Origin: Candidatus Latescibacterota bacterium | Lineage (GTDB): Bacteria > Latescibacterota > UBA2968 > UBA8231 | Length of the DNA stretch: 64,000 nt | Reading direction: 5' to 3' | NCBI GenBank assembly: GCA_965217585.1 | Contig: OZ244561.1 | Coordinates: 882,888-946,887 of the forward strand | Shown: piece after piece, positions 554 through 18,341 of the stretch | Position numbering within the stretch: the stretch's first letter is position 1 | Layout: each line of letters starts with the position of its first letter | Notes under the pieces: model-generated | The model's database searches: none | Told to the model about the DNA's origin: nothing | What the model saw: the letters and a program-made list of their open reading frames with translations, nothing else | Made by a program: the position numbers and the translations under genes

Positions 554-3500
554 CTATTCCCGTTCAAAACCCTGGCTGGAGAACTTGAGCGTCCGGCTGT
601 TCTCGGTGACGGTGCGCACGACGTGATCGGGCGCACCCGAGGGGATTTCGGCTTCTATCTCTAGGGTCACGGTCACTTTCGCACCTACCAAGCCGGAGAG
701 ATGGGCAATGACCTCATCGGCAATCTGGCTTGCGTCGCGGCCGACGCGGGTAGCATCGAGGGTCACGGCCCCGTGAAAGCGCCGCGCTTTCTGCTCAGGT
801 GGGGGAGGCGTTGGCTCTGGATGGGTGCCGGTACCGGCCGACGCGCTGGCATTCGTCTCAGCGACGCCGACGCCCGCCCCGGTTGCCGATGACGCTGGCT
901 CTGCCTCCTGCTGTGCGATCGCGGCTGCGGGCTTGACTAGCAGCCCATCGCTCGCAGGATCAAGCAGGGGGACCTCACGGCCACAGCGGAGTCCGCGATA
1001 GCGGCTCGTGGCTTCATCGAAGGCATCGGCATAAGCGAACGATTCATCTCTCCAGAGGAGAAGCCCCAACCCGTCTTGAATGGCTGCAATTAGGACCTCT
1101 GGACCAGCGAGACGGGGCAGGTAGAGATAGCGGGCGAAGTGGTCTGCCAACTGGCGGATTTCTACGTGATCGCCACGCCACAAGGGCACCCGGTCGAGTT
1201 CCATTCGCAGGCGCGTGCCCGCGAGCGCCGGTACCAACAGCTCTTCCGACCGCAGTTTCTTGCTGGCGCGCACGGCGAGCGGGTCCTGCCCAGCCAGCCG
1301 CAGAGCCTGCCACTCGACTGCCGCTTGGGGTGTGGACTGCACTGGCACTAGGAGCCACTGGTAGGCCTCCGGCAGCCGTCCCACCACGGCACCATCCTCC
1401 GACTTCAACTGTGCTTCGGCCTGCCGCACCTGATGCGGGTCGAGGTTCAGGGTCTCTTTGTCTTGGAGGATGGACGACCACGCCAACCAGCGACGAACCG
1501 CTTCATCCAGGTCCTGCAAGCGGGTCTGGTCCACGGCGAGGAAGACCAGCGTATTGCGAAAGAGGCGCGGGGTGTTGCCGCGATTTTCAAGTATGGCGGT
1601 GGCCGCGGCCTGCGCCTTGCTGTTCGACCCGCTGCTGTGCGGGTGCTCAGTCCCCAGCACCACCAGACGAGCGTCCATATCGTCGGGGATGTCAGCGCCG
1701 GATTGCGGCACCGTATGGATGCGCTGGAAATCGCCCGTGCTGCGTAAATCGGCACGCAACCGCTGCTCGATCTCAGCCACCACCGGCGCGGGATCGCGCC
1801 TGAATTGATCGGCCCGGTCTTCCGCCAGCTTAGTGACAGTCGGCTGTGTTGAGTACCAGTAGCGCGGGCCATCCTGATAGAGAAAGGTCGCCTGCGTGCT
1901 CAGACGACGCAGGGCATCGCCAAAGATCGCCGGTGTTTCACCCGGCATTGCGGAGCCGAGCTTTATGCGGCGGTCCTCAATGCCGCGATTGGCTACCGAG
2001 GTCGTCGGTGCAGAGCCGAGGTACACGGTGCGCGCCACCCGACGAGTCGCCGAGAACTTGCCTAGGTTCGCCACCTCGCCGTCAATGTGCTGCGGCAGCG
2101 CATTCGGGCCATCCACATCCGCCTCGATGATCGGCGTCCAGTTGTCGGACAGATAGCGGGTCAACTCGTTGCGGACGTGCAGGTCGTCGATGGGGATGTG
2201 CGCTGGCATGATCAGCGGGTTGCGGTCGCCGCGTTCCCACAGACTGTGGATGACCGCGGCCATCAGACGCAGGACGCCACGGGTGCGCTGAAATTTCACT
2301 AGTGCGGACCAGTCCGTGTAGAGCCGGTCAAAGACCTCGGGATGGATTGGATAGGCGGCACGCAGGCGACGCTCGTAGTCGGCATCTCGACATTCGGCAG
2401 GGAACTCCTGCTGCTGGGCGCGGTAGAAGTCGGCGAAGGTGCGTGAGACATTGTCGCGGGCCGTGAATTGCTCGCGCTCGCTCAAGGGTTCAAATAGGCG
2501 GCGGCGCACGATCTCGAAGCCTTCTTCGGTACTCGCCGGCGTCCATGAGGATTCGACGCGGCCAATGACATTCTTGAGCCGCGCCAGCGCCGCCCGGCCA
2601 CGGAGGCCACCGACTTCCTCGTCTTCACCTTGGGCATGGGGGGAGGTCGCCGTATCCGATGACGGCAAGCTGATCACCAGCAGGCAACAATTCGCCGCCC
2701 GCGCGGATTCGGTCAAGGTCTGGGCAAAGCTGAAGTGGGTTTCAAAACTGCCGGCTGGCAGGTCTGCGTCGTCGTGCAACTGGCGGGCGTAGGCAACCCA
2801 TTCGTCGATCAGAATGAGGCACGGGCCGTATTCGTTCATCAGTTCGCGGAGGATGTCGCCTGGGTTGGTGGCGCGCTCGTCGTCTTGTCGCACTTTGTCG
2901 AATGCCGCTTTGCCGCCGAGTTGCCAAGCGAGTTCGCCCCACAGCGTCCTGACCAAGGTGCCGTCGTCTTTTGCCGACGGGTTGCCGGGCGAGATCTTGT
3001 TGCCGACCAGCACGACTCGTTTGACGTGGTCGGGCCGTGCGGCGATTTCGGTTGACGCGATCAGGTCGTCGATGCCGAGCAACTCGCCGGTTGGCATTCC
3101 AGAGAATAGATGGTACAGGGCTAGCATCGAGTGGGTCTTGCCGCCACCGAAGTTGGTCTGTAGTTCCACCACTGGATCGCCGCCCTGACTGCTCAGCCGC
3201 TGCATCGCTCCGCTGAGCAGGCTCTTCAGGCTCTCCGTCAGATAGGTGCGGCGAAAAAACTCCGCTGGGTTGCGGTACTCGTCCGTGCCTTCACCGATAT
3301 GGACCTGCCACAGGTCCGCGGCGAACTCGGCCTGCTGGTAGCCGCCGCTGGCCACGTCGCGATGCGGGGCCACGACCTCGCGCCAGGGCTTCAGGCTGCC
3401 GGTGGCTTGGCTCTCAACGGTGGTGCCCGCGCCGCGCCGGCGTTCGCTGCGCGCCTGCTCCTCAAAGACCAGACGGCGCAGTTCCATCTTCATGCGATTG

Positions 3501-3892
3501 ACCTCGTCTGCTTGCGATGCGGAAACGGCCGTCAGCAGGCGGGCGACGGAGTCGAGAGTGCGGTCGGCGTCATCGCTGGAGAAGCTGTCTTGGTGCGCCC
3601 ACTTGTTGCGCTGGTCGCGGATTTCGTTGACGAGGCTGCGCTCGGCACGGCCCAGTACAGTGCGGAACACGTCGTTCCACGTTTCCCACATTAGCTTGAG
3701 GAGTGCGGCTACGTCCCACTGCTCTATGGGCTTGTCCGTCAGGTGTGGATCATCGACAAAGCGCCGGATCGTGTCCATATGTACGCCACCGGCCTTGATT
3801 TTGTCTTGGAGTTCGCGCTCGACAAATGGGCCAAGCCCGGCCTTGAGGAGTTCGAGTGCTTTGCCGACGCGTTCTTGATTGGTAATAGCCAT
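554..3892 (-). CDS. DUF499-type P-loop ATPase with N-terminal Swt1-like HEPN domain (1112 aa)
   Basis: ORF-track 1112-aa protein. N-terminus MAITNQERVGKALELLKAGLGPFVEREL...NEIRDQRNKWAHQDSF carries an Rx4H HEPN motif. Walker A is QTNFGGGKTHSML and Walker B-like is CLILIDEW. The size and the C-terminal VTLEIEAEIP tail are typical of DUF499 proteins found beside DUF1156 methylases. AAGGA lies 7 nt before the ATG. Confidence 0.85.
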   Translation of the reverse strand: MAITNQERVGKALELLKAGLGPFVERELQDKIKAGGVHMDTIRRFVDDPHLTDKPIEQWDVAALLKLMWETWNDVFRTVLGRAERSLVNEIRDQRNKWAHQDSFSSDDADRTLDSVARLLTAVSASQADEVNRMKMELRRLVFEEQARSERRRGAGTTVESQATGSLKPWREVVAPHRDVASGGYQQAEFAADLWQVHIGEGTDEYRNPAEFFRRTYLTESLKSLLSGAMQRLSSQGGDPVVELQTNFGGGKTHSMLALYHLFSGMPTGELLGIDDLIASTEIAARPDHVKRVVLVGNKISPGNPSAKDDGTLVRTLWGELAWQLGGKAAFDKVRQDDERATNPGDILRELMNEYGPCLILIDEWVAYARQLHDDADLPAGSFETHFSFAQTLTESARAANCCLLVISLPSSDTATSPHAQGEDEEVGGLRGRAALARLKNVIGRVESSWTPASTEEGFEIVRRRLFEPLSEREQFTARDNVSRTFADFYRAQQQEFPAECRDADYERRLRAAYPIHPEVFDRLYTDWSALVKFQRTRGVLRLMAAVIHSLWERGDRNPLIMPAHIPIDDLHVRNELTRYLSDNWTPIIEADVDGPNALPQHIDGEVANLGKFSATRRVARTVYLGSAPTTSVANRGIEDRRIKLGSAMPGETPAIFGDALRRLSTQATFLYQDGPRYWYSTQPTVTKLAEDRADQFRRDPAPVVAEIEQRLRADLRSTGDFQRIHTVPQSGADIPDDMDARLVVLGTEHPHSSGSNSKAQAAATAILENRGNTPRLFRNTLVFLAVDQTRLQDLDEAVRRWLAWSSILQDKETLNLDPHQVRQAEAQLKSEDGAVVGRLPEAYQWLLVPVQSTPQAAVEWQALRLAGQDPLAVRASKKLRSEELLVPALAGTRLRMELDRVPLWRGDHVEIRQLADHFARYLYLPRLAGPEVLIAAIQDGLGLLLWRDESFAYADAFDEATSRYRGLRCGREVPLLDPASDGLLVKPAAAIAQQEAEPASSATGAGVGVAETNASASAGTGTHPEPTPPPPEQKARRFHGAVTLDATRVGRDASQIADEVIAHLSGLVGAKVTVTLEIEAEIPSGAPDHVVRTVTENSRTLKFSSQGFERE

Positions 3893-4312: not shown

Positions 4313-5221
4313 ATGGCCGAATTCGATACCATCTCCAAGCACTTCATCCACACCTACCCGGCCGACTTCGTCCGCTTCGCCCTCCAGCGCGATGACATCG
4401 AAGTCGTCGAAGTGCTGGACACTGAGCAACCTACGGTCGAAGTGCGCCGTACAGACAGCCTCCTCCGCATACGCATCGCTGGCGAGGACGCCTTAGTCCA
4501 CCACGAATTTCAAACCACCGACCACCCGGCCATGCCCCGCCGCATGGCCGGCTACATCGGCCGCAGTATCGAGCACTACGGCCTGCCGGTGTACGCCCAC
4601 GTCCTCTACCTGCGCCCGGCCTCCGGGCGACGTGACCCAGGGTACTATATTCAAGAGCATCCAGACTATCCGGTCGTGATCCGCTACAAAGTGATCCGCC
4701 TGAGCCAGCTCGCCGGTCAAGCCGTGCTCGACTGCGAGTTTGTGGGCTTGCTGCCCTTTGCGCCGTTGATGCAGCCGCCAGCCGGTCAGACCGAGGCGGC
4801 GTGGTTAGAGCAGTGTGTGGCACGGGCGGCAGCCCTGCCGCTGGATCGGTCGGTCAAGGCCGATTTTCTCGCGGGGCTGGCGATTTTGAGTGGGTTGGTG
4901 TATAATCCGCAGACGATCATGGCCATTGTTTCCAAGGAGAACCTCATGGACCTCATCCGCGAATCCTCCTTTGCCCAGTACCTCGCCGAAAATGCCCGTG
5001 AGGAGGGAATCAAGCAAGGCATTGAGCAAGGCATTGAGCAAGGGATCCAAGAAAGCATCCAAGAAGTGTTGGCCCTGCGCTTTCAGCCGGAGGATATGCA
5101 CTTGTTGGCCAGTCGCATTGGGGCCATTGACGATGTGCAGCGCCTCAAGCAGTTGCATCGGGCGGCCATCCAGATGCCCAGTCTCGCAGCCTTCAGGCGT
5201 CTGTTAAACGCCGACGAGTAG
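4313..5221 (+). CDS. Rpn-family recombination-promoting nuclease / putative transposase (PD-(D/E)xK) with DUF4351-like C-terminus
   Basis: 302 aa. The block DSLLRIRIAGEDALVHHEFQTTDHPAMPRRMAGYIGRSIEHYGLPVYAHVLYLRP is the conserved Rpn/YhgA-like core (D...E-F-Q). The C-terminus has the repeat EEGIKQGIEQGIEQGIQESIQEVLALRF, typical of the DUF4351 tail. Confidence 0.8.
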   Translation: MAEFDTISKHFIHTYPADFVRFALQRDDIEVVEVLDTEQPTVEVRRTDSLLRIRIAGEDALVHHEFQTTDHPAMPRRMAGYIGRSIEHYGLPVYAHVLYLRPASGRRDPGYYIQEHPDYPVVIRYKVIRLSQLAGQAVLDCEFVGLLPFAPLMQPPAGQTEAAWLEQCVARAAALPLDRSVKADFLAGLAILSGLVYNPQTIMAIVSKENLMDLIRESSFAQYLAENAREEGIKQGIEQGIEQGIQESIQEVLALRFQPEDMHLLASRIGAIDDVQRLKQLHRAAIQMPSLAAFRRLLNADE

Positions 5222-5330
5222 GCCCGCCGCGTAACCCGCCCGCCCGAGCCATAGGTCCGCGCACCCAAGGGATCACCACAAAACGCGCACCTGTCCTGCC
5301 TAAAGGCAGGGTGAAGCTGGCGTGACATAT

Positions 5331-5351
5331 AGTTTTGTTAGGGCCTCTTAG
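5331..5351. repeat. 21-bp repeat agttttgttagggcctcttag, copy 1 (identical copy at 32996-33016)
   Basis: Verified base by base. It is preceded by the hairpin cctgcc-taaa-ggcagg (5295-5310). Confidence 0.9.
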
Positions 5352-5362
5352 GTGCAGATGTA

Positions 5363-5638
5363 TCAACCACGCATCTTTCTGGCATTCTCGAAGTCCTTTT
5401 TTAACTCTTCACGAGTTAGATTCGCAACAGGAACTTTGTACGACTTCAAAATATCAAAAAAAGCCACTCTACCTAGGCCGGCGAGTTCTGCGGCCCGTCC
5501 TGAGGATAGGCGACCAATTTCATAGAGCTTTGCTGCCAAAAGTATTCGTGCTTCCTGTGCAAATTCATCAGGGGTTTCTTTTAGCGCATCTAGAATGTTG
5601 GCGGGGCATTCAATTTTTATAGACGTCATCTTCGGCAT
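5363..5638 (-). CDS. UPF0175-family antitoxin-like HTH protein
   Basis: MPKMTSIKIECPANILDALKETPDEFAQEARILLAAKLYEIGRLSSGRAAELAGLGRVAFFDILKSYKVPV matches the UPF0175 (COG2886) pattern. The ATG at 5638 is preferred over the TTG at 5680 in the ORF track. Confidence 0.7.
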   Translation of the reverse strand: MPKMTSIKIECPANILDALKETPDEFAQEARILLAAKLYEIGRLSSGRAAELAGLGRVAFFDILKSYKVPVANLTREELKKDFENARKMRG

Positions 5639-5682
5639 GGTGCTTGCCCTTGGTCTTGTTGTGTAGCTTGCGTTCGACAAAC

Positions 5683-6093
5683 TTATTCAGCGGTTGTGCG
5701 CCGCTCAAACTCGGCTGCTATCGAGTTGTAAACCTCTCGTGCCTGCGACACCGCCTGTTCGGCATCAGTCGCTGTGGCCTCTTGCCAATCGCCTGGATAC
5801 CGTGCCTCGACAGCCCATTCCGTCAATTGAGCAAGATCAGTGTGTGTACGCCGCACCGACCAAGTATCTGGGAGAAGGTTGCGCAAGGCATCTAGGTCGT
5901 GTCGGAACGGAAAGTCTATTCCCTCCAGTACCAGTGCTGCCTTCAACGCCTTTTCTGCAGCTTGCTGGGAGAGGAAACAGGCGTGACGAGGGGAGGACCC
6001 ATCCGCTGCTAGCAAGCGTTGTGCAGCATCGATATCCTCCGTCGCGAAACGAAGCCAGCGGCGAGCTTCGTCAACTAGTTCAGGGGCGTTCAT
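5683..6093 (-). CDS. HEPN domain protein (toxin half of an MNT/HEPN pair)
   Basis: 136 aa. SQQAAEKALKAALV...FRHDLDALRNLL...AVEARYPGD are the conserved HEPN (PF05168-type) blocks. It overlaps the MNT gene by 14 nt. Confidence 0.85.
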   Translation of the reverse strand: MNAPELVDEARRWLRFATEDIDAAQRLLAADGSSPRHACFLSQQAAEKALKAALVLEGIDFPFRHDLDALRNLLPDTWSVRRTHTDLAQLTEWAVEARYPGDWQEATATDAEQAVSQAREVYNSIAAEFERRTTAE

Positions 6094-6406
6094 AGAGAAC
6101 CTTCCCTTCGCGGAGAGCTGAACGCAACACGGTTCCCACGAGATGCCCGCGACGAGCGACTTCTTCGGGAGTCGCTACCACTATGTCCTTGCAGACTGGC
6201 AGATCGCCCAAGGCCCGGCGGATCTCGATAGCCGTGTGCCGCTTGTCGGACACATTGGGCAGAATTACGAGCAGGTCCACGTCGCTCCATTCGGTTGCCG
6301 TGCCCCGTGCATGGGACCCGAAGAGGACGACCCGCGAAGGCTGGAAGCCTCTCACGATGCGGTCCACCATAGTTGATATGAATGTTTCCGATGCGGCTAC
6401 GTTCAT
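6080..6406 (-). CDS. Minimal nucleotidyltransferase (MNT, antitoxin half of an MNT/HEPN pair)
   Basis: 108 aa. [24 protein letters not shown] is the GSxxRG...DxD polymerase-beta NTase motif. Its ATG (6404-6406) overlaps the methylase TGA (6403-6405) as ATGA. Confidence 0.85.
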
Positions 6407-9309
6407 GTTGCACCTCCCGCAGCTCCATCACCGAACAGCCCGCCCTGTTCGAGCGGTGCCTCCTGCCGCTCCTTGCGCGCCAGATCGGCGATTTCGGGCC
6501 AGCTCTGTACCAGGCTGTTGTAGGAGAGGGCTTCGGCGGCGCGGCGCTTGCGTTCGCAGATGGTGTAGAGGCGGTAGGCCAGTTCGCGGGCGATGTCGGC
6601 GGATGCGCCGAGTTGGGCCTCGACCCGCGCTGCTTCTGGCTCGCCGCCGGTTTCTAAGGCGCGGATTAGGTGGTGGACTGCTTCCCACACGGTGAGCCGG
6701 TCGTCGGTGGTTGGGTCCCAGTCGTCGGCTAACTCGTCTGGGCGCAGCAGGCGCACCTTGCCGGCGCTGGAGGCGAGGATGCCGCCTTCGACGATGCCGG
6801 CGATGCTGGTGTTTTTGGCTTTGGACAGGGTTTCGGCGACGCCGTATTCGCCTTCGTCGAAGCCTTGCTGCTCGAACCACGCCAAGGCCCAGCGGCTGTC
6901 GGCGTCAAAGTCGCCTTCCTGCTCGGCGAGCACTTCGTCGAGTAGCTGGTTGATGAGCGCTAGGGCCTCGCGCACCGAGACGGGATTGCCCTCGGCGTCG
7001 AGCACTTTGGCGTAGCGGGTGAATACCGCCATGCCGGGGCCGATGGCGGCTTGGGCGAGATCGACTGGGGCGATGTTGCCGGATTGCAGGTGGGCGAGGG
7101 CAGTGGGGAGCTCGGCCCTCAACGCGGCGACGAATTCGCGGCGGGTGGCCATTGGCGCATCGGCAGGGCGTTGGCGGCAGACGAGGACGATGCTGGAGGC
7201 GAGGGCGTTCTGTTCAAAGGCTCGGAGTCCCTTCGGTTGTTCAGTCCGCATCGGCCAAGTGCCGGTGACGGAGAAGCCTGACTGAATGACTGCGGCTAGG
7301 AAAGTCTCCCAGCCGGTGCTAGCAGTGCCGGTTTCGCCTTTGGTCTCGGACTGCTTGAAGGCATAGTAGATGGTGACAGGAAAACTGGGATGAGATTGTT
7401 CCGAAAGGCGGCGCATCGCCTGTGTCATACCGTCGAGGAAGAAGGTCTCTGCCGCGTCCTTACTCCCGTGTCGGTACGGGGTTGCCACCAACTCTTCGGC
7501 CTTCGGAACGGCGAGCGTAGCGAAGAGATCAGGAAACACCGGTTTTAGAGAGTGGCGCAGCCAGACGTAGAAAAAGTCCGACAGATCAGCGTAGACGATG
7601 TTGTCGTAATACGGAGGGTCGGTAGAGATGACTTTCGCGTCGGAGATTGTTTGGTTAACCGCATCCTCTTGGGAAGCTACAGAGGGGATCAACCGATTGA
7701 ACTGCTTATCTACGACTTCGCAAACAGACTTGACCGTTCCGAAGATATCGCCACCGGCACCTGCAAGTGGATTGGTCTCAGCGAAATCCCAGACCATTGG
7801 CAAAGCCTGTCTGCCGAATGTTGCGACAAGCCTGTCCATTCTGTGCTCCCATATACAAAGGCTCGTATTCCGATTGCAACCCTTACTCTGGGCAAACGCC
7901 AGATACACACCCATCGCCTCGGCATACGCCATCGCGCCAGCACCCTCATTCCGTAGCGGTCGTACGTCATTGGGCAAATCGGCGCTGGCGGCATCCTGCT
8001 TGACGCGCTCCATTGCTTCCGTTACCAAGTCGGAGAAGGTAGTCAGGGCGACCAGTTGGCGGGGGGTGAAGAGGTCTGCAAAGGTACTCATGCCGTAGAG
8101 AGGGAGCTGATCTCGACACTTACCGATTAATTCATTATCCGGCCGCCACTCTGGCGTCGCTTGGTCTGCAACCGCCTCCTGATCTGGCCTCGGCGCAAGA
8201 TAAACCCTGCCCCGATCTCCCCCGACCACGATCGCCATTAGCCGTGCCCCCATCCGCCCGGCCTGCCCCTCGGCCTTGATATAGCCCCCTGCAATCGGTG
8301 TCCCCGACATCACGCAGCGGAAGTTTGCTCCTCGCGCCAGCTTGGTCCCCACCTTCGCCGCCTCCGCATCCTCCGGCGTTCCCACCTTCACCACAAACCG
8401 ATACCCACGCCCCTCAATCACCGGCTCGACATACGCCTCCTTCCCCTTCTTCGTCGAAAGCATAAAGGTCGCGGCCAGCGGAACCTCCACATCGGCAAAC
8501 GCCGGATTCGGGCTTCTCACCGTCCGCGCCCACAGCCATGCAATCACCGTCAGCTTGCGCCCCTTGTATCGTTCAAGATCGGGCCGCTCCCGCACCATCT
8601 CCTCGGTAATCTCAACCTGCGGATACAGATGCCCAATGCGCCGCTTGGCCTCGTCGCGCATCCACTGGCCATAGTAGCGCACATCCTCGGCTAGCCCCTG
8701 CGCCCCCTTCCATTCGCGCTCGATCAGACTCCTTTCCTCGCGGGACACCGGATTCACCGGCGACTGACCGGCGAACTTCGGCGGTATCTCGATCATGGCC
8801 TTGTTGATGAGCACTGCCACCGGATTGAGGTCGCTGGCATGAGCCTCAAGCCCCAACCGCTGCGCTTCCAACGGCAAGGCACCGCCGCCAGCAAACGGAT
8901 CGTGAAAGGCCGGCAGCTTGTCCGGGTCGAACAGTTCGGCAGCGCGCGGATGATCGGCATGGTCGGCACAGGTTCGCCGCCAACTCTTGCGAATCTCCGT
9001 CCGCGCCCGTTCCAGCACCTTCTCGTTAGTGGTGTTTTCCCACTTCACCAATTCTTCGATGAGGCGAAACAGCCGCTCGCGCTCCTTTTCCTGGTCGGCC
9101 TCCGTAGGGAACAGATCGGGGCTGGCCGACGGATCATCGACCATCTGCGCAAAAATCACCGCCCGCGCCGCCGCCAACGGCCGCCGCGCCCACCACAAAT
9201 GCAGCGTACTCGGATGCCCGTGCCGAATCGACTTCTCCCGCGCCGACGCGGCATTGATCGCGTCGAGCGGCAGGGCGACTTCAATGAGCTTTTTGCGGGG
9301 AGCCGTCAT
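6403..9309 (-). CDS. DUF1156-type DNA methyltransferase (N6-adenine/N4-cytosine class)
   Basis: [60 protein letters not shown] is the DUF1156 signature N-terminus. Catalytic motif IV is [21 protein letters not shown]. The start is set at the internal ATG at 9309 because it forms an ATGA overlap with the upstream gene's stop. Confidence 0.9.
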
Positions 9310-9785
9310 GTGCCGAGCGCCTTGGTCAACTGTTCTTTGCACTTGATCAACCGGACGGGCTCGGCAGTTCCATGAAACCGCACTTGGTTGTGCTTGGCCT
9401 TCAATGCGTTCCGTTCCGCCGTATGGATACCACCGCCGTAGGCCACGACAGGGCGGAAGTTGACAGCCATCGTATTAGGGATAAGCTGTTCGGCGGCGTG
9501 GGCTCCCGCTTTGAGTTGTCGGACGATTCCGCTGGTGTCCAATTGGCCTTTCTTCAACTCCAGCGGCACGACCCAGCCGGGCTTGCTATGATCCTCGGCG
9601 ACGAACAGGTAGTCGCAGCGTGTCTGATTCTTACCCAGTGGCGAGCCCTGTTCGTCGAAATCGATTACTAGGCGTGGTTGCGGCGCATCTTTTAGCGACA
9701 CCGAGCATCCTTCCTTCTTGATACCTCTGTTTTCAATACACGTATTATTAACCTTCCCGCGAACCATTCCCACCAATCCCGTCAT
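9306..9785 (-). CDS. Hypothetical 159-aa protein, putative PD-(D/E)xK (restriction-endonuclease/Hjc-like) nuclease
   Basis: [24 protein letters not shown] gives D58-x17-E76-L-K78 embedded in hydrophobic strand-like segments. There are ATGA overlaps with the ATPase gene (9782-9785) and the methylase gene (9306-9309). No other recognisable motif. Confidence 0.6.
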
Positions 9786-11308
9786 TCGGGTTCTCCGATC
9801 CAGCTAGAAATATCGGCCCAGTCGTTGTGGAGTACGCGTGCGACTTCATCAAATTCGGATGGATAAAGTCCTGAGTCGTCGAGACGAATTTCCCTCACTA
9901 CCGATCCCTTCGGACGGAGCCTCGGTTTGAACAGCCATGCTCCCACTTGGTCGGAACGCAGCGCGAAATCACCCCGGGGAATTTCCTTGCGGCGGGCTTT
10001 GGGAAGTTCGGAGCGCCGTACGATGTTGGCGAGTTCCTCTAGCACCCACTCGCTGTGAGTCGTGATTATCACCCTGATACCCGCATCAACGAGTGCGGCG
10101 ATTTGGCGGATGAATTCGACCTGCATACCCGGATGCAGGTGCGCTTCCGGCTCTTCAATGATCAAGGTCTCGCCGGGCTGAACAACATGGCGCATATACA
10201 AGACCACTGGCGCGAGTTCCGACACCATCGACGAGGTGTTCATCAGAGGTAGGGAATTTTTCCATCCGTCGGGTTTATAGAAAAACAGCGGATAGCCCAT
10301 TGCCGACGTTTTGATTTGAACCGAGCCTGTGAGGATCGCTTGCTCAATGTGCTTGGCTAGAGCGTCTGCTCCGTTGCTCTGACGTTCCGCAGGATCGCCC
10401 AACTTGATGAGCTGATTGAGAAAATCGGCGACAACACCCGAAAGGTCTGGCAGCGGATCTTCTCGATGAAGCCGAGGTTGCGCGGCGCGATTGATCAAGG
10501 AACTGATGACCACGCGATGAGCGTGCATCACGCCGGTGCGGTCGGCGGGAAGATAATGAGCGGGGCGAGTCATCGGGCCGAGGATGAAGGAAAGGACGGA
10601 GTTGGCAAGGCGCTCCGACACTTCCGACACACCCGCCATTCTGTCTATATCGTTGCGCCAGCTAAGGAGTCTTGAAGAATAACTATATTTTTTCGGCGGT
10701 TTTGCAACCCGCAAAGGCACTGCCTCGGAGATCGCAGTAGTTAGCTGCGATCCCTTCTGCGTCATCGAAAGTGCGTATTTGAACGGTGCCGTGTTGCCAC
10801 CTTCTCCCAATCCGCTGCTTTGCAGGGCAACCTCGGCATTATTGCTGCCCGGATGGCGAATCAAATCCTTTGTGCCATCTACACCGAAACACCTCGTGAT
10901 TTCCTCAGCGAGTACTTCTTTAAAAAGACCATCGACGTGTCGGAGTTGCCGAAGTACCAAATCTGCGACCGGAGCCGACAGAGCCACATTGCGCTCGTGG
11001 TTCTCCGCTTCCCATGCTCGTAACGCTTGTAGGATGCGGTCGAATTCGGCGTCAAGCAGGCGGTTAAATTCGTTGTCGGGCAGATCGAGATCATCAAGTG
11101 AGCCGTTTGTAATCGGCTGCATTATAGGGTAGGGACCGGCCCTAAAAAACCGATGCAGCGCATAGATCAGGATCGCCAAATAGGATTTCCCCGTGTTGCT
11201 CGGCCCAATGAATACGGTCAGTGGACGCAGATCGATCTTGGCCTCGACGATCGGCCCGAAATTGGCTACTTCGAGTTCAAGTGTGTCTTGTTTAGTTAGA
11301 TCGTTCAT
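9782..11308 (-). CDS. ABC-type (AAA_15/AAA_21-like) ATPase, 508 aa
   Basis: Walker A FIGPSNTGKSYL, YLPADRTG, Walker B/D-loop TLIIEEPEAHLHPGMQ, H-loop VIITTHSEW. The start is set at ATG 11308 (MNDLTKQD), with GGAG about 10 nt upstream. The ORF-track extension to 11446 would run into the promoter motif. Confidence 0.85.
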   Translation of the reverse strand: MNDLTKQDTLELEVANFGPIVEAKIDLRPLTVFIGPSNTGKSYLAILIYALHRFFRAGPYPIMQPITNGSLDDLDLPDNEFNRLLDAEFDRILQALRAWEAENHERNVALSAPVADLVLRQLRHVDGLFKEVLAEEITRCFGVDGTKDLIRHPGSNNAEVALQSSGLGEGGNTAPFKYALSMTQKGSQLTTAISEAVPLRVAKPPKKYSYSSRLLSWRNDIDRMAGVSEVSERLANSVLSFILGPMTRPAHYLPADRTGVMHAHRVVISSLINRAAQPRLHREDPLPDLSGVVADFLNQLIKLGDPAERQSNGADALAKHIEQAILTGSVQIKTSAMGYPLFFYKPDGWKNSLPLMNTSSMVSELAPVVLYMRHVVQPGETLIIEEPEAHLHPGMQVEFIRQIAALVDAGIRVIITTHSEWVLEELANIVRRSELPKARRKEIPRGDFALRSDQVGAWLFKPRLRPKGSVVREIRLDDSGLYPSEFDEVARVLHNDWADISSWIGEPE

Positions 11309-11426
11309 ATCTTCATTCTCCGTTCTAGCACCTCGTCTGGGCTGACGCGGCGTTGATTTTCGGAAGTTACAGGCTCTCGTCCATACGACCACCAGCACTG
11401 CAACAGCAAGCCCAAACGAAAAAGCG

Positions 11427-11456
11427 ATCATAGTCAGTACTTGCAAGTTTGGACAA
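11427..11456 (-). promoter_or_regulatory. Putative sigma70-type promoter of the ATPase-nuclease-methylase operon (-35 TTGTCC, 18-nt spacer, -10 TATGAT)
   Basis: Minus-sense sequence: TTGTCC aaacttgcaagtactgac TATGAT. The spacer contains the perfect 10-bp palindrome ACTTGCAAGT. It is a paralogue of 3996-4025. Confidence 0.45.
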
Positions 11457-11611
11457 GTAGAATCTAATTGAACAGTGTGCTTTGCGCTTTGCCCGGCAGC
11501 TCGGTCTCAAGGCCCTGACCGTTCCAGAATTCACCGTATATCTATACGAAATAGGGTAGTGCGTCACTTTGAAATTATTGTATATAATTCCCCCAAAAAA
11601 AGGTGCTATTA

Positions 11612-13324
11612 ATGTATTTCCCCGTCTTTGCTCGAACGGCCAAGTGCGATACTGCATGGACCATTTTGTCCGTCTGCTTTGTTCTAGCTTTGCAGGTCGG
11701 GTGCGGCTCAGAACCCCAAAGCCATGTGGTCGCAAGGATAGCGGGGCAAGAAATCACCACGGTCGAACTGCAAGCGTTCGCCGCCCGCCTGCCGGACGGC
11801 ATCCACGCAGGTAAGAGCGACAGTGAGGCCAATGTCATGGTCTTGAATGCGCTGATCGACAAAAAAGTGCTACTAGCCGAAGCAGAGGCGCAGCAATTGC
11901 AGAGCGATCCGGGCTTGGTCCTCGATTTATCCGCCTTCAGAGATCGGGAAATGATGAAGTTGTACAACCAGCTCAAAGTGGATCAGCAGATTTCGATTGC
12001 ACAAGAGGAACTGATCGAACTGTACCGGGACGAGGCTTGGGACAGAGCGCTGCGCCTTGCAGCCATAGTGGTCGCAACGCGGGAGCAAGCCGACGAACTA
12101 GTAGCCGAACTCAACAGCGGCAAGGCGTTCCGCCAGCTCGTCGACGCCTATTCTGTCGATGAGACAACCAAAGCCTGGGGTGGAGACACGGGACGCTATT
12201 TGTCCAGAGACACCGCCGATGAATCCCTGCGGGAATTATTGACCCTGCAGGTGGGTGACCTATCGGAGCCGCTGCCCTTCGCCTATAAAGGAAAAAAGCA
12301 CTACGCCGTATTCAAAGTACTAGACGAGATGCCCATTGCCTTAAACGAGGTGCAAGATGTCCTCGAGGAGAAAATTTTCGGCTCCAAACGAATTGCCCGC
12401 AGAGCGGCGTTGACCGATTCGCTGGCGGGCGTCTACGAGCCTTTAGTAGATGCCGCTGGGGTGGCATTTTTGGCCGAGCGGTCAGCCGGCGGCCAAATCA
12501 ATGTGTCCGAGGCGGAGGCCACTAGGCGCTTGGGTTCCTACCGCGACGGCGATCTGACCATTGGCGAATTTCTTTCCGTCGTGCTCCACAAAGCCGGTCC
12601 GGGGACCCGGCACCAACTCGCCGATACTGCGTTGGTAGCGGCCAAGGTCCGCGGCCTGCTCACTGCCCAGATGCTACTCAAAGCATCCCACGCCCTGGGC
12701 CTAGATCGGGATTCTACCTTGGTAGCCAGCGTGGAAAACGAGCGCGAAAATCTACTCGTGAGTCTGCTGCGCAAGATCAATGTCGACGCCTATATCAGGG
12801 TTGCAGCAGCAGAAGCCCGCGCCTTCTACGACAAAAACCCCGAAAAATTTCGCTATCTCGAAGCCATTATAGCCGCAGAGGTTCTCTTGTCCAACGAAGA
12901 GGAAGCTCAGCGCGTAAAAGAGCAATTGCAAGAGGGAGCCGCTGCAGAACAATTGATCGCAAAATACGACACTCGCGGGGTCCATGGAGAAAAAAGGGGA
13001 TTTGTGCGCCTCGACGCCTACAAGCGACTTCACTACCCCCATATATACGATCTGTCCCAGGATATGGAAATAGGCCAAGTCGGCGGACCCATCAAGGTTG
13101 CGGAAGGGTATTCCGTATTTAAAATAATCGACCGGGAAGCGGCCAAGCCCAAACCTTTTAATGCCGCGGCGAAAAAACGCGCCACCGCCTATGTCAGGAT
13201 CAATAAGGCCAAGCACGGCTATGTGGAGTTCGTGAGCGCTTTGCGGGAGAAATACGACGTGGAAACTTTCCCCGCCAATATTCCCACCATGATCAAAGAC
13301 GGGAAATTTCAGGCCGACAATTAG
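11612..13324 (+). CDS. SurA-like peptidyl-prolyl isomerase (parvulin/PpiC) lipoprotein
   Basis: Signal peptide plus lipobox LALQVGCGS. SurA-N-like region IAGQEITTVELQAF. C-terminal parvulin-like block GGPIKVAEGYSVFKIIDRE. The ATG at 11612 is preceded by AAGGTG; the ORF track starts at GTG 11603. Confidence 0.75.
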   Translation: MYFPVFARTAKCDTAWTILSVCFVLALQVGCGSEPQSHVVARIAGQEITTVELQAFAARLPDGIHAGKSDSEANVMVLNALIDKKVLLAEAEAQQLQSDPGLVLDLSAFRDREMMKLYNQLKVDQQISIAQEELIELYRDEAWDRALRLAAIVVATREQADELVAELNSGKAFRQLVDAYSVDETTKAWGGDTGRYLSRDTADESLRELLTLQVGDLSEPLPFAYKGKKHYAVFKVLDEMPIALNEVQDVLEEKIFGSKRIARRAALTDSLAGVYEPLVDAAGVAFLAERSAGGQINVSEAEATRRLGSYRDGDLTIGEFLSVVLHKAGPGTRHQLADTALVAAKVRGLLTAQMLLKASHALGLDRDSTLVASVENERENLLVSLLRKINVDAYIRVAAAEARAFYDKNPEKFRYLEAIIAAEVLLSNEEEAQRVKEQLQEGAAAEQLIAKYDTRGVHGEKRGFVRLDAYKRLHYPHIYDLSQDMEIGQVGGPIKVAEGYSVFKIIDREAAKPKPFNAAAKKRATAYVRINKAKHGYVEFVSALREKYDVETFPANIPTMIKDGKFQADN

Positions 13325-13329
13325 TTTCT

Positions 13330-15885
13330 TTATTTTTTTGGCCGCTGGCCGGCTCCTTCTAACCTTCTCAGGGCCCGCAGGGCCGTTCTTTCGTCCGGAT
13401 CGGTTTTGCGGGCCTGTCTATAGTGCCAAATCGCGTCGCCTGTTTTGTCGTTTAGCAGGGACACCGCGCCCTCGATCGAGTACTTACGCGATCGGAGGCG
13501 GCGCTCGATGTTTTGTTTCTCCTCTTCGTCCATGTCGAAAAGAGACTCGTTTGTCTCCACCACTAGGTGGGGCAACAGGCTTGACAGAGCGGGCAGGCCC
13601 GCGCCCGTATCCCCGCGCCGGCGGTCGGTAAAGCTTATATAGGGTCGGTCGTCGGTGTTCAAAGGGCCATGGCCGGCGTAGTCTGAAAAAGCGCGCTCGT
13701 CCAGGGCCAGGGTCCCGGCGAAAGAAACCGGATCGGCCAGATCTACCTCTTGCAGAGATTCTTGCAAAGCCGCTGCTGACAGTCGTTGTGCCAATAATTC
13801 AAAGTCGATGTGTTGAGGCTGGTTTGCACCCAGCACAATGGAGTATTTGTCGGTCAGCCACAGGGTCGCGTGGGGGAAAACCGCGCGAAATGTTCGCAAG
13901 ATCATCTCGTAGTCGGCTACGGCCAGCCCGTGCAGGGGGATCCACTGGGCTATCAAGCCTGCTGTTTTGAGTCGCTGGCGACAGAGCTGGTAGAATTCTT
14001 CCGTATACAGCACCCAGCTATCCGCCGTGCCGGGATGGGTCGCGTCGGCGATAATGATATCGTAGCGCTCTGGTGTCCGCATCACGTGGTTTCTGCCGTC
14101 GCCGTGGATTAGCCGGAGGCGATCCGTGCCCACCCTGTTGAAGACGTAGTTGTTGTAGCGGGCAAAAAAATCGGCGGCCTCGACCACACCGGGGACGACT
14201 TCGACGCAATCCACCCGCTCGGGTTGGTGCAGCAAGACCGAACTGAGGGTAACGCCGCCCCCGAAGGCAATCACCAGGACTTGCCGGGGGTCGCTGTGCA
14301 GGATCATCGGCAGATTGCCGAGGAGTCGAAAAATCTTGATTGATGCATGGTCTGTCGGCACTTCTCCCATGCCATTTACTTTGAGGATGCGGTTGCCGTG
14401 GTCCATTTGCTGGACCGTTACCGTCCCAGCAGTACCCTCGCGGTAATAGACAAGCTCGCTGTCTTTTTCTGTATTTGTGAACAACGCGATAAAAAGATTG
14501 CTCGGCATGGCCCAAGTCAGCAGCAGTACCGCGCCGATAGGCAGGCCTATGGCTTGCAGCTTAAAACGACTACTGGCGTTTGGATGGACCAGCAGCAGCA
14601 CCGCCCCCAAGGCGATGTTGGTCCAGGCCAAGACTTGCACCGCGCGCTCTGTGCCCAGTAGCGGAATCAATAAAAAACCGGCGCCAAAAGCGCCACCGAT
14701 AGATCCCAGTGAATTGACGGCGTAGACCTTGCCGATTTTTGTGCCCAAGGTCTTTAAATGCGTAGCGTTGAGTTGTCCTACGAGCGGCAAGAGCACTCCG
14801 AGCAGACAGGTGGGAATGAGCGTGATCCAGAAAATCAAGGTAGCTGTTGCGAAAAGATAGCCCGTCCATGAGGTAAGCGCACTGAGATATGGAATGAAAT
14901 GGGTGCTAGCCCCGAATGCGCCGATGGAGATATGACCAAACAGGCCCAGGAGTATCTCAACGGCGCCGAATGCAATGAGCAGATCCGGCCAGCGGCCGAC
15001 AAAACGAGAGGCGATGGCCCCTCCGAGCGCCAGACCGAGCAAGAAGGCGATCAGGATGATGCTGAGACTTTGGGCCGTGCTCAGCCCCAGTATCATGGTC
15101 AGCACCCGCGTCCACAGCACTTCGTATCCCAGAGCGGTGAAACCCGATGCGCAGAACACCAAAAGCGTCAATTGCCCCAGCCAGTTCGGTAGTGCTGGAG
15201 GATTCTTTTGCTGCGCGTTGTTTCTTTTGCCTAAACTCACCCGGTATGGCTCGGCTGAGTCCGACAAACGGCGGGACCACGTCAGGGAAAAGACCGCAAT
15301 GAGGACATTGCCAACAACGGCGACTGTAGTCGTGCCGCTGATGCCCAAATACTCGATGGTCAGATAAGCCGCGGCCCCGACCCCGCAGGCGGCGCCGAAC
15401 GTATTGGCGGCATACAAGGTCCCCACACTCCAACCCACCTGCGACAGGTGCCGAGTTGCAAAGCGGATCAGAATCGGCAGGGTGCCCCCCATTAGCGTAG
15501 TGGGAATGAGCAGGACGAGGAAACAAAGCGGGAAGCGCATGAGTGCAAAGACATAGGGCGTCGACTCCAGTTGCTGGTAGAGCCAAGTGTGGATTTCGTC
15601 CAGTCCGCTAAGGATTAAGGGGAAAGTTAGGGCAAAGGCGGCGATGCCCAGCTCGAGGAAGGCGTAGAGGCGCAGGTTGTTTTCGCTCTTGTCGGCCAGG
15701 TGCCCGAAGCAGAAGCTGCCCAGCGCCAACCCCGCCATAAAAGCTGTTAGGACCGTGCTGACCGCAAAAGCCCCGGTGCCGAATACGAGGACCAGCATTC
15801 TCACCCATATCACCTGATATACCAAGGTACAGGCACCGGAAAGGAAGAACAGGACCAGCAGGAAGATGTGGGCACCGCGGCTCAA
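13330..15885 (-). CDS. Fused MFS-like membrane domain / spermidine synthase-like methyltransferase-fold protein with C-terminal TPR-like tail
   Basis: 851 aa. The N-terminal ~470 aa are polytopic (IFLLVLFFLSGACTLVYQVIWVRML...). Then come VLVIAFGGGVTLSSVL and YDIIIADATHPGTADSWVLYTEEFY, which are spermidine synthase motifs. Confidence 0.85.
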   Translation of the reverse strand: MSRGAHIFLLVLFFLSGACTLVYQVIWVRMLVLVFGTGAFAVSTVLTAFMAGLALGSFCFGHLADKSENNLRLYAFLELGIAAFALTFPLILSGLDEIHTWLYQQLESTPYVFALMRFPLCFLVLLIPTTLMGGTLPILIRFATRHLSQVGWSVGTLYAANTFGAACGVGAAAYLTIEYLGISGTTTVAVVGNVLIAVFSLTWSRRLSDSAEPYRVSLGKRNNAQQKNPPALPNWLGQLTLLVFCASGFTALGYEVLWTRVLTMILGLSTAQSLSIILIAFLLGLALGGAIASRFVGRWPDLLIAFGAVEILLGLFGHISIGAFGASTHFIPYLSALTSWTGYLFATATLIFWITLIPTCLLGVLLPLVGQLNATHLKTLGTKIGKVYAVNSLGSIGGAFGAGFLLIPLLGTERAVQVLAWTNIALGAVLLLVHPNASSRFKLQAIGLPIGAVLLLTWAMPSNLFIALFTNTEKDSELVYYREGTAGTVTVQQMDHGNRILKVNGMGEVPTDHASIKIFRLLGNLPMILHSDPRQVLVIAFGGGVTLSSVLLHQPERVDCVEVVPGVVEAADFFARYNNYVFNRVGTDRLRLIHGDGRNHVMRTPERYDIIIADATHPGTADSWVLYTEEFYQLCRQRLKTAGLIAQWIPLHGLAVADYEMILRTFRAVFPHATLWLTDKYSIVLGANQPQHIDFELLAQRLSAAALQESLQEVDLADPVSFAGTLALDERAFSDYAGHGPLNTDDRPYISFTDRRRGDTGAGLPALSSLLPHLVVETNESLFDMDEEEKQNIERRLRSRKYSIEGAVSLLNDKTGDAIWHYRQARKTDPDERTALRALRRLEGAGQRPKK

Positions 15886-15975
15886 AATGGCAACCTAGGC
15901 GGTTTAATTGGGCTATGAGCCCGGTAGGGTGTGTACCGTTTATTCACCGGACGAGTCGCTCCGCCGATCTTTGTA

Positions 15976-17352
15976 ATGACAAAATTAAAACGCTTAATCG
16001 CATTCCTTTGCCCGCTCTTTTTTAGCTGCGGCCAGCCCGAGACAGAGGTCATCGCCTTGGTCGAGGATGAAAAGATCACTGCGGCAGAACTGCGCGACTT
16101 TGCGGAGCGGAGAGAAAAAACAGCTATAAGAGTCGGCACTGCAATCGCCGATACGAGCGATCCGCTGCAACAGCTCATCGCCAGAAGGCTGCTGCTGCTA
16201 GAGGCCCGCCATGTCGGTATGGCCGCTGACTCGGTTTTTGTGCGCCGGTTGGAGCGCCGGCGGCGAGATGCGGTGATTGAATCTTATCTCGAGCGCCAGG
16301 TCGACGCGAAAATCGTCGTGACCGCAGAAGATATTCTGCAGGAATACTATGATGCAAACGGGCATCGCGGTCTCAAGTTTATCTATGCTGCAAGAGCGAC
16401 CAAAGCCGCCGCGGTAGAGGACTTGGCCGCGGAAAAATCCATTTGGGGTCTCTCCGGTTATGTGCTCAAAGGACAGGTCAATGAGCAAGTGGCCGACGAA
16501 TTGTTCGCTCTGCCCGTGGGATCCATTTCCCCAGCTCTCCCTCTGCCGATCAAAGCGGATACCGTCTTTGTGGCTTTTAAAGTTCTCGCTGAAAAGCGCG
16601 TCCCTCTCATCGCCGTGCGGCAGCTTATTGAACGCGGCCTGCACTCCCGTATCAGGGCAAAGATGGAGCGGGCTCTCGGGCTCTCTCTGCGCGATAAATA
16701 CGCCAGCGGCACGGCTAAGGACAATCCATCTCGCAAGTTCGATTCCTCGTCCGTTAGGCCCGACAGTGCACGTATCTCCGATCTCTATTTTGCCGCAGCA
16801 CGGCAAAGTGGTATCGACGAGGAACCCGAGCTACAGGCAAAACTCAGCACCATCGCCGAGGATCTACTCCTGAGCTATTATCTGGCACAGATCGACATAT
16901 CCCCAGCAGCGGCGCGAAGTTATTTTGCGCGTCATCCCGATCAATTTCCCGCCTATGAGGCCATCACCATCACCGAGATTGTGGTCCACAATCGCAAATT
17001 GGCCCAAGATTTGCGCCTAGCAATAGCGCGGGGTGTCGATCCAGAGCTACTGGTGCCAATATTCTCCCAGGGCGTCGGGGCAAGCGGGGGGCGCGTAAAG
17101 CTCAGCCCATATACCATGCCATCAATGCGCTACGAGCGCGCCAAAGGTCTGGAGATCAACGCCGTCGGGGGGCCGATAGAGTGGGCCGGAAAGTTCTCCG
17201 TATTTGTCGTAGTGGACAAAGTGCGAGCAGGGGGCCAGTGGGATCGGGCTTCGCAACGGCGGGCCGAGCGGCTGGCCAGAGAGGAAAAAGAGCGTCGGCA
17301 CTTGGATGCGCTGCGACAGAAATTCTCAGTCCGGGTATTGGCGGAGAGATAG
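15976..17352 (+). CDS. SurA-like PPIase-domain lipoprotein (paralogue of 11612-13324)
   Basis: MTKLKRLIAFLCPLFFSCGQ gives a signal peptide and lipobox. VIALVEDEKITAAELRDFAERRE parallels the N-terminus of the first PPIase. C-terminal GGPIEWAGKFSVFVVVDK is a parvulin-like block. Confidence 0.7.
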   Translation: MTKLKRLIAFLCPLFFSCGQPETEVIALVEDEKITAAELRDFAERREKTAIRVGTAIADTSDPLQQLIARRLLLLEARHVGMAADSVFVRRLERRRRDAVIESYLERQVDAKIVVTAEDILQEYYDANGHRGLKFIYAARATKAAAVEDLAAEKSIWGLSGYVLKGQVNEQVADELFALPVGSISPALPLPIKADTVFVAFKVLAEKRVPLIAVRQLIERGLHSRIRAKMERALGLSLRDKYASGTAKDNPSRKFDSSSVRPDSARISDLYFAAARQSGIDEEPELQAKLSTIAEDLLLSYYLAQIDISPAAARSYFARHPDQFPAYEAITITEIVVHNRKLAQDLRLAIARGVDPELLVPIFSQGVGASGGRVKLSPYTMPSMRYERAKGLEINAVGGPIEWAGKFSVFVVVDKVRAGGQWDRASQRRAERLAREEKERRHLDALRQKFSVRVLAER

Positions 17353-17372
17353 ACCCCGCTGGACCCTAGTAC

Positions 17373-18317: not shown

Positions 18318-18341
18318 ATTTCGCTCCTTATGTGAAAATTC

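Follow-up and report, generated by a model that had tools for sequence, protein, structure and literature searches.

A WonAB-like ATPase-nuclease pair at the 5' end of an Hma defence locus in a Candidatus Latescibacterota bacterium

The ATPase and small-protein genes

We analysed a 64,000-nucleotide stretch of DNA from a Candidatus Latescibacterota bacterium (contig OZ244561.1 of assembly GCA_965217585.1, forward-strand positions 882,888 to 946,887; hereafter the window), in which a 508-amino-acid (aa) ATPase and a 159-aa small protein are encoded by the first two genes of a minus-strand operon. An initial annotation had presented the two as a candidate restriction module that fits no named system, joined to the DUF1156 methyltransferase gene that follows them. 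Our results place the pair in a known class of stand-alone anti-phage modules (the WonAB / PD-T4-4 / PDC-M47 type), inside a known Hma defence locus. The locus reveals no new restriction-system type, but it adds a clean example of an Hma-embedded defence system, in which the DUF1156 neighbour is to be read as part of Hma. The remaining points of note are a cassette exchange between related operons, a conserved set of four cysteines in the small protein and an unusually tight linkage of the pair to the 5' end of hmaB.

The lengths, coordinates and motifs given initially were recovered on the minus strand, with open reading frames (ORFs) at 9782-11308 for the ATPase and 9306-9785 for the small protein. 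The ATPase gene starts at ATG 11308, with GGAG 8 nt upstream, and stops at 9782-9784. The mechanical ORF reaches further, to TTG 11446 (554 aa); this longer form was rejected because about 120 homologues begin at the ATG and the close ones, 498-517 aa long, align from M1.

Pfam, PADLOC and fold matches agreed with the initial view of the first protein as an AAA_15/AAA_21 ATP-binding cassette (ABC) ATPase of the PtuA/AriA/GajA kind. Pfam matched AAA_15 (5.6e-24) and AAA_21 (5.6e-12). The best PADLOC matches were PD-T4-4_A (1.2e-35, spanning aa 288-491 together with the N-terminus), PDC-M47A (1.2e-27), AriA (1.9e-25) and NsnB, followed by weaker matches to HEC-02A (1.3e-15), HEC-01A (8e-13), GajA and Old. 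A hidden Markov model (HMM) of the ATPase family (Z = 1e6) matched the Sorangium 'OLD-ABC ATPase' at 4.8e-37 and WonA homologues at 4.5e-19 to 6e-10. By sequence, OLD nuclease 6p74 was the only PDB match (3.8e-4). The AlphaFold2 model (predicted local distance difference test score, pLDDT, 69) gave fold matches to PtuA of Septu/retron complexes, RecN, Rad50, GajA and OLD, with E values of 5e-11 to 1e-7. By analogy, we propose the ATPase as a sensor/activator subunit.

The motifs GPSNTGKS, YLPADRTG, LIIEEPEAHLHP and ITTHS were invariant or nearly so across 113 homologues. We aligned them with seven WonA homologues and the Sorangium OLD-ABC ATPase, using sequences from the supplement of PMC12137116, and each motif had a WonA counterpart. 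The Walker A motif GPSNTGKS (aa 35-42, with K41; minus strand, 11183-11206) was invariant in 42 homologues and corresponds to GPQAxGKS in WonA. The LPADRTG motif (aa 253-259, with R257, or YLPADRTG at aa 252-259; minus strand, 10532-10552) has invariant P254, R257, T258 and G259 and corresponds to (F/Y)IPA(G/S)RS; it probably holds the residue matching WonA R182, which was mutated and found essential in PMC12137116. An invariant ABC signature variant, SSMVSE (aa 359-364; minus strand, 10217-10234), stands where WonA has SSGQQE. The Walker B / D-loop segment LIIEEPEAHLHP (aa 382-393; minus strand, 10130-10165) has invariant E385, E386, P387, E388, H390, L391, H392 and P393 and corresponds to IIEEPEAHLFP. 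In the H-loop IITTHS (aa 414-419, with H418; minus strand, 10052-10069) TTHS is invariant, and the segment reads ITTHSEW here against ITTHSPY in WonA.

The 159-aa small protein (minus strand, 9306-9785) showed no Pfam or NCBIfam match, and its profile returned a spurious ribosomal match alone (E 1.2) when compared with PDB sequences. Its family is large, with 167 clusters at 90% identity in a word-indexed search and 1,290, 808 and 232 representatives at E<=1e-3, 1e-10 and 1e-30 in an exhaustive profile search, the approximately 1,290 clusters being defined at 50% identity. Nearly all members are 150-165 aa long. The motifs CDYLFVAED (D58) and PLELKKG (E76 and K78) had suggested a PD-(D/E)xK-like protein from the start. 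In 255 members the residues of the proposed active site were conserved at 99% (D44), 99% (D58; codon at 9612-9614), 99.6% (E76; 9558-9560), 92% (K78; 9552-9554) and 99% (Q90), all encoded on the minus strand. An AlphaFold2 model built on a 41-sequence alignment reached a pLDDT of 92.2 and a predicted template modelling score (pTM) of 0.89. The PD-(D/E)xK fold call is supported by the Foldseek comparison with PDB, because the top list, although weak in score, consisted uniformly of such nucleases: EcoO109I, NucS/EndoMS, Bse634I, BsaWI, MUS81, Card1/Cdn1, MspJI, NucC and SgrAI. The named viral fold matches pointed in the same direction. The model thus supports a predicted minimal restriction endonuclease (REase) core with an idiosyncratic periphery.

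Four cysteines of the small protein were also conserved in the 255 members, C16 at 95%, C27 at 100%, C57 at 96% and C149 at 96%. C57 adjoins the putative catalytic D58 on its N-terminal side, and WonB homologues likewise have N-terminal CxxC-like cysteines and a Cys-Asp pair. The four cysteines may form a Zn or Fe-S site.

Both ATGA stop/start overlaps described initially are present on the minus strand. The ATPase stop overlaps the nuclease start at 9782-9785, and the same 4-nt overlap occurs in five of the homologous loci compared (L071-L075); the nuclease stop overlaps the hmaB start at 9306-9309, an arrangement kept in L071 and L072. The two-gene module is less GC-rich than the methylase gene (0.546 vs 0.619), as had been estimated by eye, and lies in the lowest 4% of the 2-kb intervals of the window (mean 0.595, standard deviation 0.024). 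A sigma-70-like promoter candidate, TTGTCC-18-TATGAT, lies upstream of the ATPase gene on the minus strand (11427-11456). It is a consensus match only, and the count of promoter-like sites in the region showed no excess over the shuffled expectation. It falls in an AT-richer spacer of 294 bp (11309-11602, GC 0.466) between the ATPase gene and a divergent peptidyl-prolyl isomerase (PPIase) gene, and upstream of the operon no other promoter-like site occurs on the minus strand. Another one, at 4025-3996, precedes hmaC. Upstream of the ATPase gene there are housekeeping PPIases and a spermidine-synthase-like membrane protein.

Placement among named defence systems

The closest characterized counterpart is WonAB of the Vibrio cholerae WASA-1 prophage, a combination of an OLD-type ABC ATPase, WonA, with the 16-kDa PD-(D/E)xK protein WonB (PMC12137116). 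Defence is lost when WonA carries K34A, R182A, E300A or H333A, or when WonB carries K71A. WonAB acts by lysis-independent abortive infection with translation shut-off and needs no methylase; genomic DNA stays intact, and the authors suggest rRNA or tRNA as the target. WonB is predicted to dock on the C-terminal extensions of dimerised WonA, and its overproduction is toxic, but only with WonA present and active (PMC12137116). The same authors relate WonAB to PD-T4-4 and to an 'OLD-ABC ATPase + novel REase' operon found in 0.96% of genomes (Krishnan et al. 2020, as cited in PMC12137116).

Plain HMM links between the small-protein family and WonB or REase sequences were poor, so a profile-profile comparison was needed. 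Using WonB sequences from Table S4/S5 of PMC12137116, hhalign aligned the family with nine WonB homologues at 93.6% probability (E 2.1e-7, 86 columns, about 23% identity), compared with 0.13% for the reversed-sequence control; a heterogeneous set of eight 'Novel REase' sequences gave 57.8%. In the WonB alignment D44, C57-D58, E76-L-K78 and Q90 fell on the WonB motifs DGC, CD(F/Y), ELK and Q, from which we infer that K78 corresponds to WonB K71. In PADLOC, PDC-M47B matched residues 23-94 of the window protein at 3.3e-4 / 7.2e-4 and was matched by 31 of 41 homologues of the family (best 4.4e-8); two of the 41 also touched Shedu SduA. The Enterococcus faecium 'Novel REase' of PMC12137116 matched PDC-M47B as well (1.8e-7), and WonB homologues matched PDC-M29B. 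An exact search of viral contigs with the published wonB qPCR primer gave no match.

The pair resembles WonAB in being a two-gene operon, whose neighbouring genes point the same way and encode an ABC ATPase and a 140-180-aa PD-(D/E)xK protein, in having a WonA counterpart for every functional motif of the ATPase, and in the nuclease core, which aligns as (R/K)CD(Y/F)L ... ELK(G) ... Q(L/I) with a cysteine directly before the catalytic Asp in both. A possible further likeness lies in the C-terminal region of the ATPase, which is predicted to bind the nuclease in WonAB (PMC12137116) and may do so here in view of the tail co-variation described below. The window nuclease differs in having its own N- and C-terminal elements and the C16/C27/C57/C149 set, and its family matches PDC-M47B while WonB matches PDC-M29B. 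The window ATPase is longer and has other inserts, with the qualification that the WonA supplement sequences are truncated at about 400 aa and exact lengths are not comparable. The ATPase gene comes first here, whereas the nuclease gene comes first in many listed WonAB matches.

Both genes also resemble PDC-M47, the ATPase through PDC-M47A and the small-protein family through PDC-M47B. The window protein's own PDC-M47B score is weak, which makes automatic calling doubtful. PDC-M47 is a PADLOC candidate system, itself unvalidated, and probably derives from the guilt-by-embedding candidate set of 10.1101/2024.01.29.577857, a candidate class found embedded in methylase-containing defence systems. 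PD-T4-4 of E. coli is experimentally validated and protects without a methylase (PMC9519451), and it is listed as a PD-(D/E)XK nuclease-NTPase system (10.1101/2025.07.10.664194). It provides the best PADLOC match of the window ATPase and follows the same logic of an ATPase with a PD-(D/E)xK protein; its nuclease partner is distinct, as PD-T4-4_B is not matched by the small-protein family.

Systems known to be embedded in Hma, namely HEC-01/02/03, Septu and PARIS (10.1101/2024.01.29.577857; PMC11232893), share with the window an ABC ATPase and an effector on the same strand inside an hma operon, and HEC-02B is also a PD-(D/E)xK protein (NERD). The window partner differs in not being TOPRIM, NERD, PIN or HNH. 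Septu, PARIS, Gabija and OLD were rejected because the partner, which the initial annotation had already judged to be neither HNH nor Toprim/DUF4435, matched no HNH or Toprim family of Pfam or PADLOC and has a predicted PD-(D/E)xK fold. The HEC-02 NERD type was rejected on its weaker ATPase match and the absence of a NERD family match in the partner.

By these profile comparisons, the pair is best described as a predicted divergent member of the WonAB / PDC-M29 / PDC-M47 / PD-T4-4 superfamily. The small protein appears closest to the PDC-M47 ('novel REase') branch and the ATPase to PD-T4-4_A. The initial statement that the pair could not be placed in any named system is not upheld, given the matches to PD-T4-4_A (1e-35), PDC-M47A (1e-27) and PDC-M47B (31/41) and the profile homology to WonB. 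The small-protein family of about 1,290 clusters, mostly from marine/sponge metagenome-assembled genomes (MAGs) and without a Pfam or NCBIfam model, can now be labelled as putative WonB-like PD-(D/E)xK effectors of OLD-type ABC-ATPase dyads.

Joint exchange of the nuclease gene and the ATPase tail

We compared the window with its closest relatives at the protein level. Against L072 the ATPase was 83% identical, the nuclease 39%, HmaB 85% and HmaC 94%, and L071 showed the same pattern (ATPase 86%, nuclease 38%). Against L001 the ATPase was again 83% identical and the nuclease 92%, with a remnant only of HmaB and no HmaC match. Against L002 the identities were 54% (ATPase), 77% (nuclease) and 76% (HmaB), with no match to HmaC.

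The DNA identity profile located the change. Identity to L071/L072 was 0.80-0.99 along the ATPase gene, fell from about 0.85 to about 0.5 at the ATPase tail, stayed at 0.42-0.63 between about 9880 and about 9330, and was back to 0.92-0.98 at the hmaB start. Inside the same interval identity to L001 was 0.87-0.99. The low-identity block corresponds to the last approximately 32 ATPase codons and the nuclease gene, and we delimited an exchanged cassette on the minus strand at 9330-9880 that holds the ATPase tail and almost the whole nuclease gene. These ATPase codons and the nuclease were exchanged together, as one unit. Together with the composition and the loci without Hma described below, this profile bears out the separate history from the methylase proposed initially.

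The tail itself (aa approximately 476-508; minus strand, 9785-9883) co-varies with the nuclease type. It was about 90% identical to that of L002, compared with 54% for the rest of the L002 ATPase, and across the recombinant operons it sorted with the nuclease type and not with the ATPase body. Because tail and nuclease are co-inherited, and in view of the WonAB model, these results suggest that the tail may be a nuclease-docking, partner-specificity element. The sharp boundaries of the cassette point to the same determinant, which could be tested across the WonAB / PD-T4-4 class. The detail of the cassette exchange appears to be new.

A further reading, which we put forward as speculation and think rather unlikely, is that the cassette is a plug-in effector swapped between near-identical Hma-embedded operons at fixed breakpoints (ATPase codon approximately 476 and about 30 nt before the hmaB start), and that the pair is perhaps not fully autonomous and is an Hma-wired backup effector firing when Hma is inhibited. 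If true, this would provide a natural system showing how ABC-ATPase sensors re-pair with new effectors, and a view of how embedded systems communicate with their host system.

Linkage to Hma and the surrounding genes

Pairs of this kind are known from Hma loci. Embedded genes occur in 62.7% of Hma systems, and the commonest are ABC-ATPase and nuclease pairs (10.1101/2024.01.29.577857). In Halomonas, every hma locus carries an AAA_21 ATPase together with an unannotated gene (PMC11232893), and OLD-ABC dyads with REase, HNH or PIN partners have been catalogued in BREX / DUF499-centred loci and proposed as semi-autonomous backup effectors (PMC12839542). OLD-type ABC ATPase and REase dyads in Hma/DUF499 loci were thus already described in all three sources.

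We measured the association in a pattern-based scan, run on a single genome for each species with a 15-sequence small-protein alignment, which gave 70 loci (L001-L070). Our own greedy ORF calls were noisy on high-GC MAG loci, with antisense ORFs displacing real genes. We therefore used tblastn to count Hma linkage, with database gene calls as the check. The hosts were Latescibacterota, Poriferihabitans, Dehalococcoidia, Paracoccaceae, Gemmatimonadota and Binatia, nearly all as marine/sponge-associated MAGs, which is consistent with horizontal spread of this small-protein subfamily within one habitat across many phyla.

At all 70 loci the gene immediately before the small gene was that of the ATPase, and the two mostly overlapped by 4 nt. 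An Hma signal within 10 kb was found in 23/70. Twelve of these had a substantial hmaB, usually in the order HmaA-[pair]-HmaB-HmaC or [pair]-HmaB-...-HmaC-HmaA, the latter being that of the window and L072; the other 11 had Hma fragments only. In 47/70 loci, where the pair was intact, neither an Hma nor a DUF1156 signal came up by tblastn within 10 kb. At L074 the pair stands among metabolic genes, at L073 and L075 a ThsB-TIR gene or a further AAA_21 ATPase lies beside it, and at none of these three is a methylase adjacent. Of the neighbours that the initial annotation asked about, the ATPase was constant and the methylase was not. The pair is strongly enriched at hmaB and does not depend on it. 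Because 47 of the 70 loci lack a nearby Hma gene, we read the pair as autonomous and not as the restriction arm of the methylase. The obligate nuclease-methyltransferase linkage of a classical restriction-modification unit, with the pair as R and DUF1156 as M, is missing in those 47 loci. The restriction-modification logic proposed initially is also opposed by the pairs among metabolic genes, by the effector that Hma already has in HmaA and by WonAB, which acts alone.

Eight of the 11 loci with fragments only lack an Hma system and carry, right behind the nuclease gene, a remnant of hmaB limited to its first 25-78 codons, at approximately 10474-10730 in L007, L018, L020, L023, L041, L055 and L060 and at 10268-10476 in L069. 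This suggests either that the pair clade was ancestrally Hma-embedded and later lost Hma by deletion, or that pair and hmaB 5' end travel together. L001, whose nuclease is the closest (92%), has lost the Hma system; there, insertion sequence (IS)-like repeated genes (clusters c4, c26 and c27) follow the pair (10541-19691), and an hmaB remnant of 33-48 codons lies 5.5 kb downstream.

The pair is probably an autonomous WonAB-like dyad of a sensor ATPase and a nuclease for defence, placed at the 5' end of the Hma locus and co-transcribed with Hma but independent of it. By analogy with WonAB, an ATPase dimer would hold the nuclease on its C-terminal tails and keep it in check. A phage-derived cue would shift the ATPase to another ATP-dependent state and license the nuclease to cut nucleic acid, which on the WonAB precedent may be RNA of the translation apparatus, and cutting would abort the infection. 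The module would work independently of HmaB methylation, and its position in the Hma operon would provide co-regulation and a second, independent defence layer.

Several observations weigh against this. The Foldseek matches of the small protein to PDB were weak (best E 2.5e-3, template modelling score, TM, 0.3-0.38), and in sequence it is only distantly like WonB and PDC-M47B, with an E value of 3e-4 for the window protein itself against PDC-M47B. The small-family HMM found one match below E 1e-3 (3.9e-4) and another at 1.3 among 10 WonB/REase sequences, and none below E 1 among eight 'Novel REase' sequences. PD-T4-4_B did not match any of 41 small-protein members at E<=0.01. The 70 loci, mostly of marine/sponge MAGs, came from a single pattern-based scan and are not an unbiased sample. 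Finally, Hma-linked pairs nearly always adjoin the 5' end of hmaB and overlap it translationally, which is tighter than mere co-location, and the hmaB 5' remnant is kept in eight Hma-less loci, so that some functional coupling to Hma is possible.

These last points also support a different reading, in which the pair is functionally integrated in an Hma variant, either as a restriction arm controlled by HmaB methylation or as a backup effector that comes into play once the primary Hma response is blocked and so requires an Hma-encoded input. The ATGA coupling to hmaB is kept in L071 and L072, the 23/70 loci with Hma genes or remnants are far above the expectation from the rarity of Hma, and the semi-autonomous backup role proposed for OLD-ABC-centred dyads in BREX and BREX-related loci (PMC12839542) fits as well. 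However, the pair is intact in the 47 loci where 10 kb of flanking DNA hold neither an Hma nor a DUF1156 gene, Hma already has the HmaA nuclease and the HmaC HEPN domain (PMC11232893), and no methylase is needed for protection by WonAB or PD-T4-4 (PMC12137116, PMC9519451). The place of hmaA also varies, before the pair in L005, L008 and L010 and after hmaC in the window and L072. We consider functional integration unlikely.

Much less probable is a toxin-antitoxin (TA) or addiction module, an 'AbiEii-like' AAA_21 ATPase with a toxic nuclease that stabilises a genomic island and does not sense phage. Pfam annotates AAA_21 as putative AbiEii toxin / type IV TA, the locus is rich in TA-like cassettes (MNT/HEPN and UPF0175) and WonB overproduction is toxic (PMC12137116). 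However, that toxicity requires an active ATPase, which rules out simple sequestration (PMC12137116), and the window ATPase has the complete, invariant catalytic ABC motif set expected of an active sensor or motor. A housekeeping role in DNA repair or recombination, with a RecN/Rad50-like ABC ATPase and a NucS/Hjc-like nuclease as partners, is scarcely credible despite the fold matches to RecN, Rad50 and NucS/EndoMS, given the patchy, mosaic distribution, the embedding in defence loci, the lack of the coiled-coil insertion typical of Rad50/RecN, the closest ATPase profile matches, which are all defence ATPases, and the cassette swapping typical of conflict systems.

The genes downstream of the pair are predicted from their domains to form a canonical Hma system, HmaB-HmaC-HmaA (type-1 'BREX-related', DUF1156/DUF499/Snf2). 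The window has all three core gene types of Hma, or type-1 DUF499-centred BREX-related, systems on one strand, and the ATPase-nuclease pair is not among these core genes (PMC8565338, PMC11232893, PMC12839542). HmaB (minus strand, 6403-9309; 968 aa) is a DUF1156 N6-adenine methyltransferase by its matches to PADLOC HmaB (E=0, 1554 bits) and Pfam DUF1156 (5.9e-33). HmaC (minus strand, 554-3892; 1112 aa) is a DUF499 ATPase (5e-30; PADLOC E=0) with an N-terminal HEPN_Swt1 match (2.2e-35). Its N-terminal 124 aa correspond to a Swt1-like HEPN RNase domain, which would give Hma a potential suicide effector in addition to the nuclease on HmaA. HmaA is the Swi2/Snf2 helicase, and the nuclease of Hma sits on this helicase-nuclease effector (PMC11232893). 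The N-terminal 182 aa of HmaA lie at 1-546 on the minus strand (SNF2-rel_dom 7.5e-8, ResIII 1.2e-6), where the gene leaves the window; the remainder of HmaA, with its C-terminal nuclease, falls beyond it. This fragment clusters with helicases of about 1190 aa from other Hma loci, and a full-length hmaA with NOV_C is present in L072.

The slot between hmaB and hmaC (4313-6406) holds an MNT cassette (6080-6406; NTP_transf_2, 1.3e-13), a HEPN cassette (5683-6093; HEPN, 1.7e-23) and a UPF0175 cassette (5363-5680; UPF0175, 1.1e-26), all on the minus strand with Pfam matches, and an antisense Rpn-like gene (recombination-promoting nuclease/transposase-like; plus strand, 4313-5221) that matched NCBIfam TIGR01784 at 3.5e-8, below the curated cut-off. 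In L072 the slot (14892-16962) contains DUF433 and DUF5615 genes and, in the same position, a 65%-identical counterpart of the Rpn-like gene, and in L071 (15744-20110) an AAA_13 ATPase, MNT/HEPN genes 95% / 93% identical to those of the window, and DUF433. The slot looks like a second insertion hotspot of the same operon. In L071 the DUF1156 gene (11994-15587; 1197 aa) has a weak match to Y1_Tnp, an IS200-type transposase, and its alignment with the window HmaB falls into two blocks (aa 1-443 and 438-955) about 670 nt apart, which points to an insertion inside hmaB.

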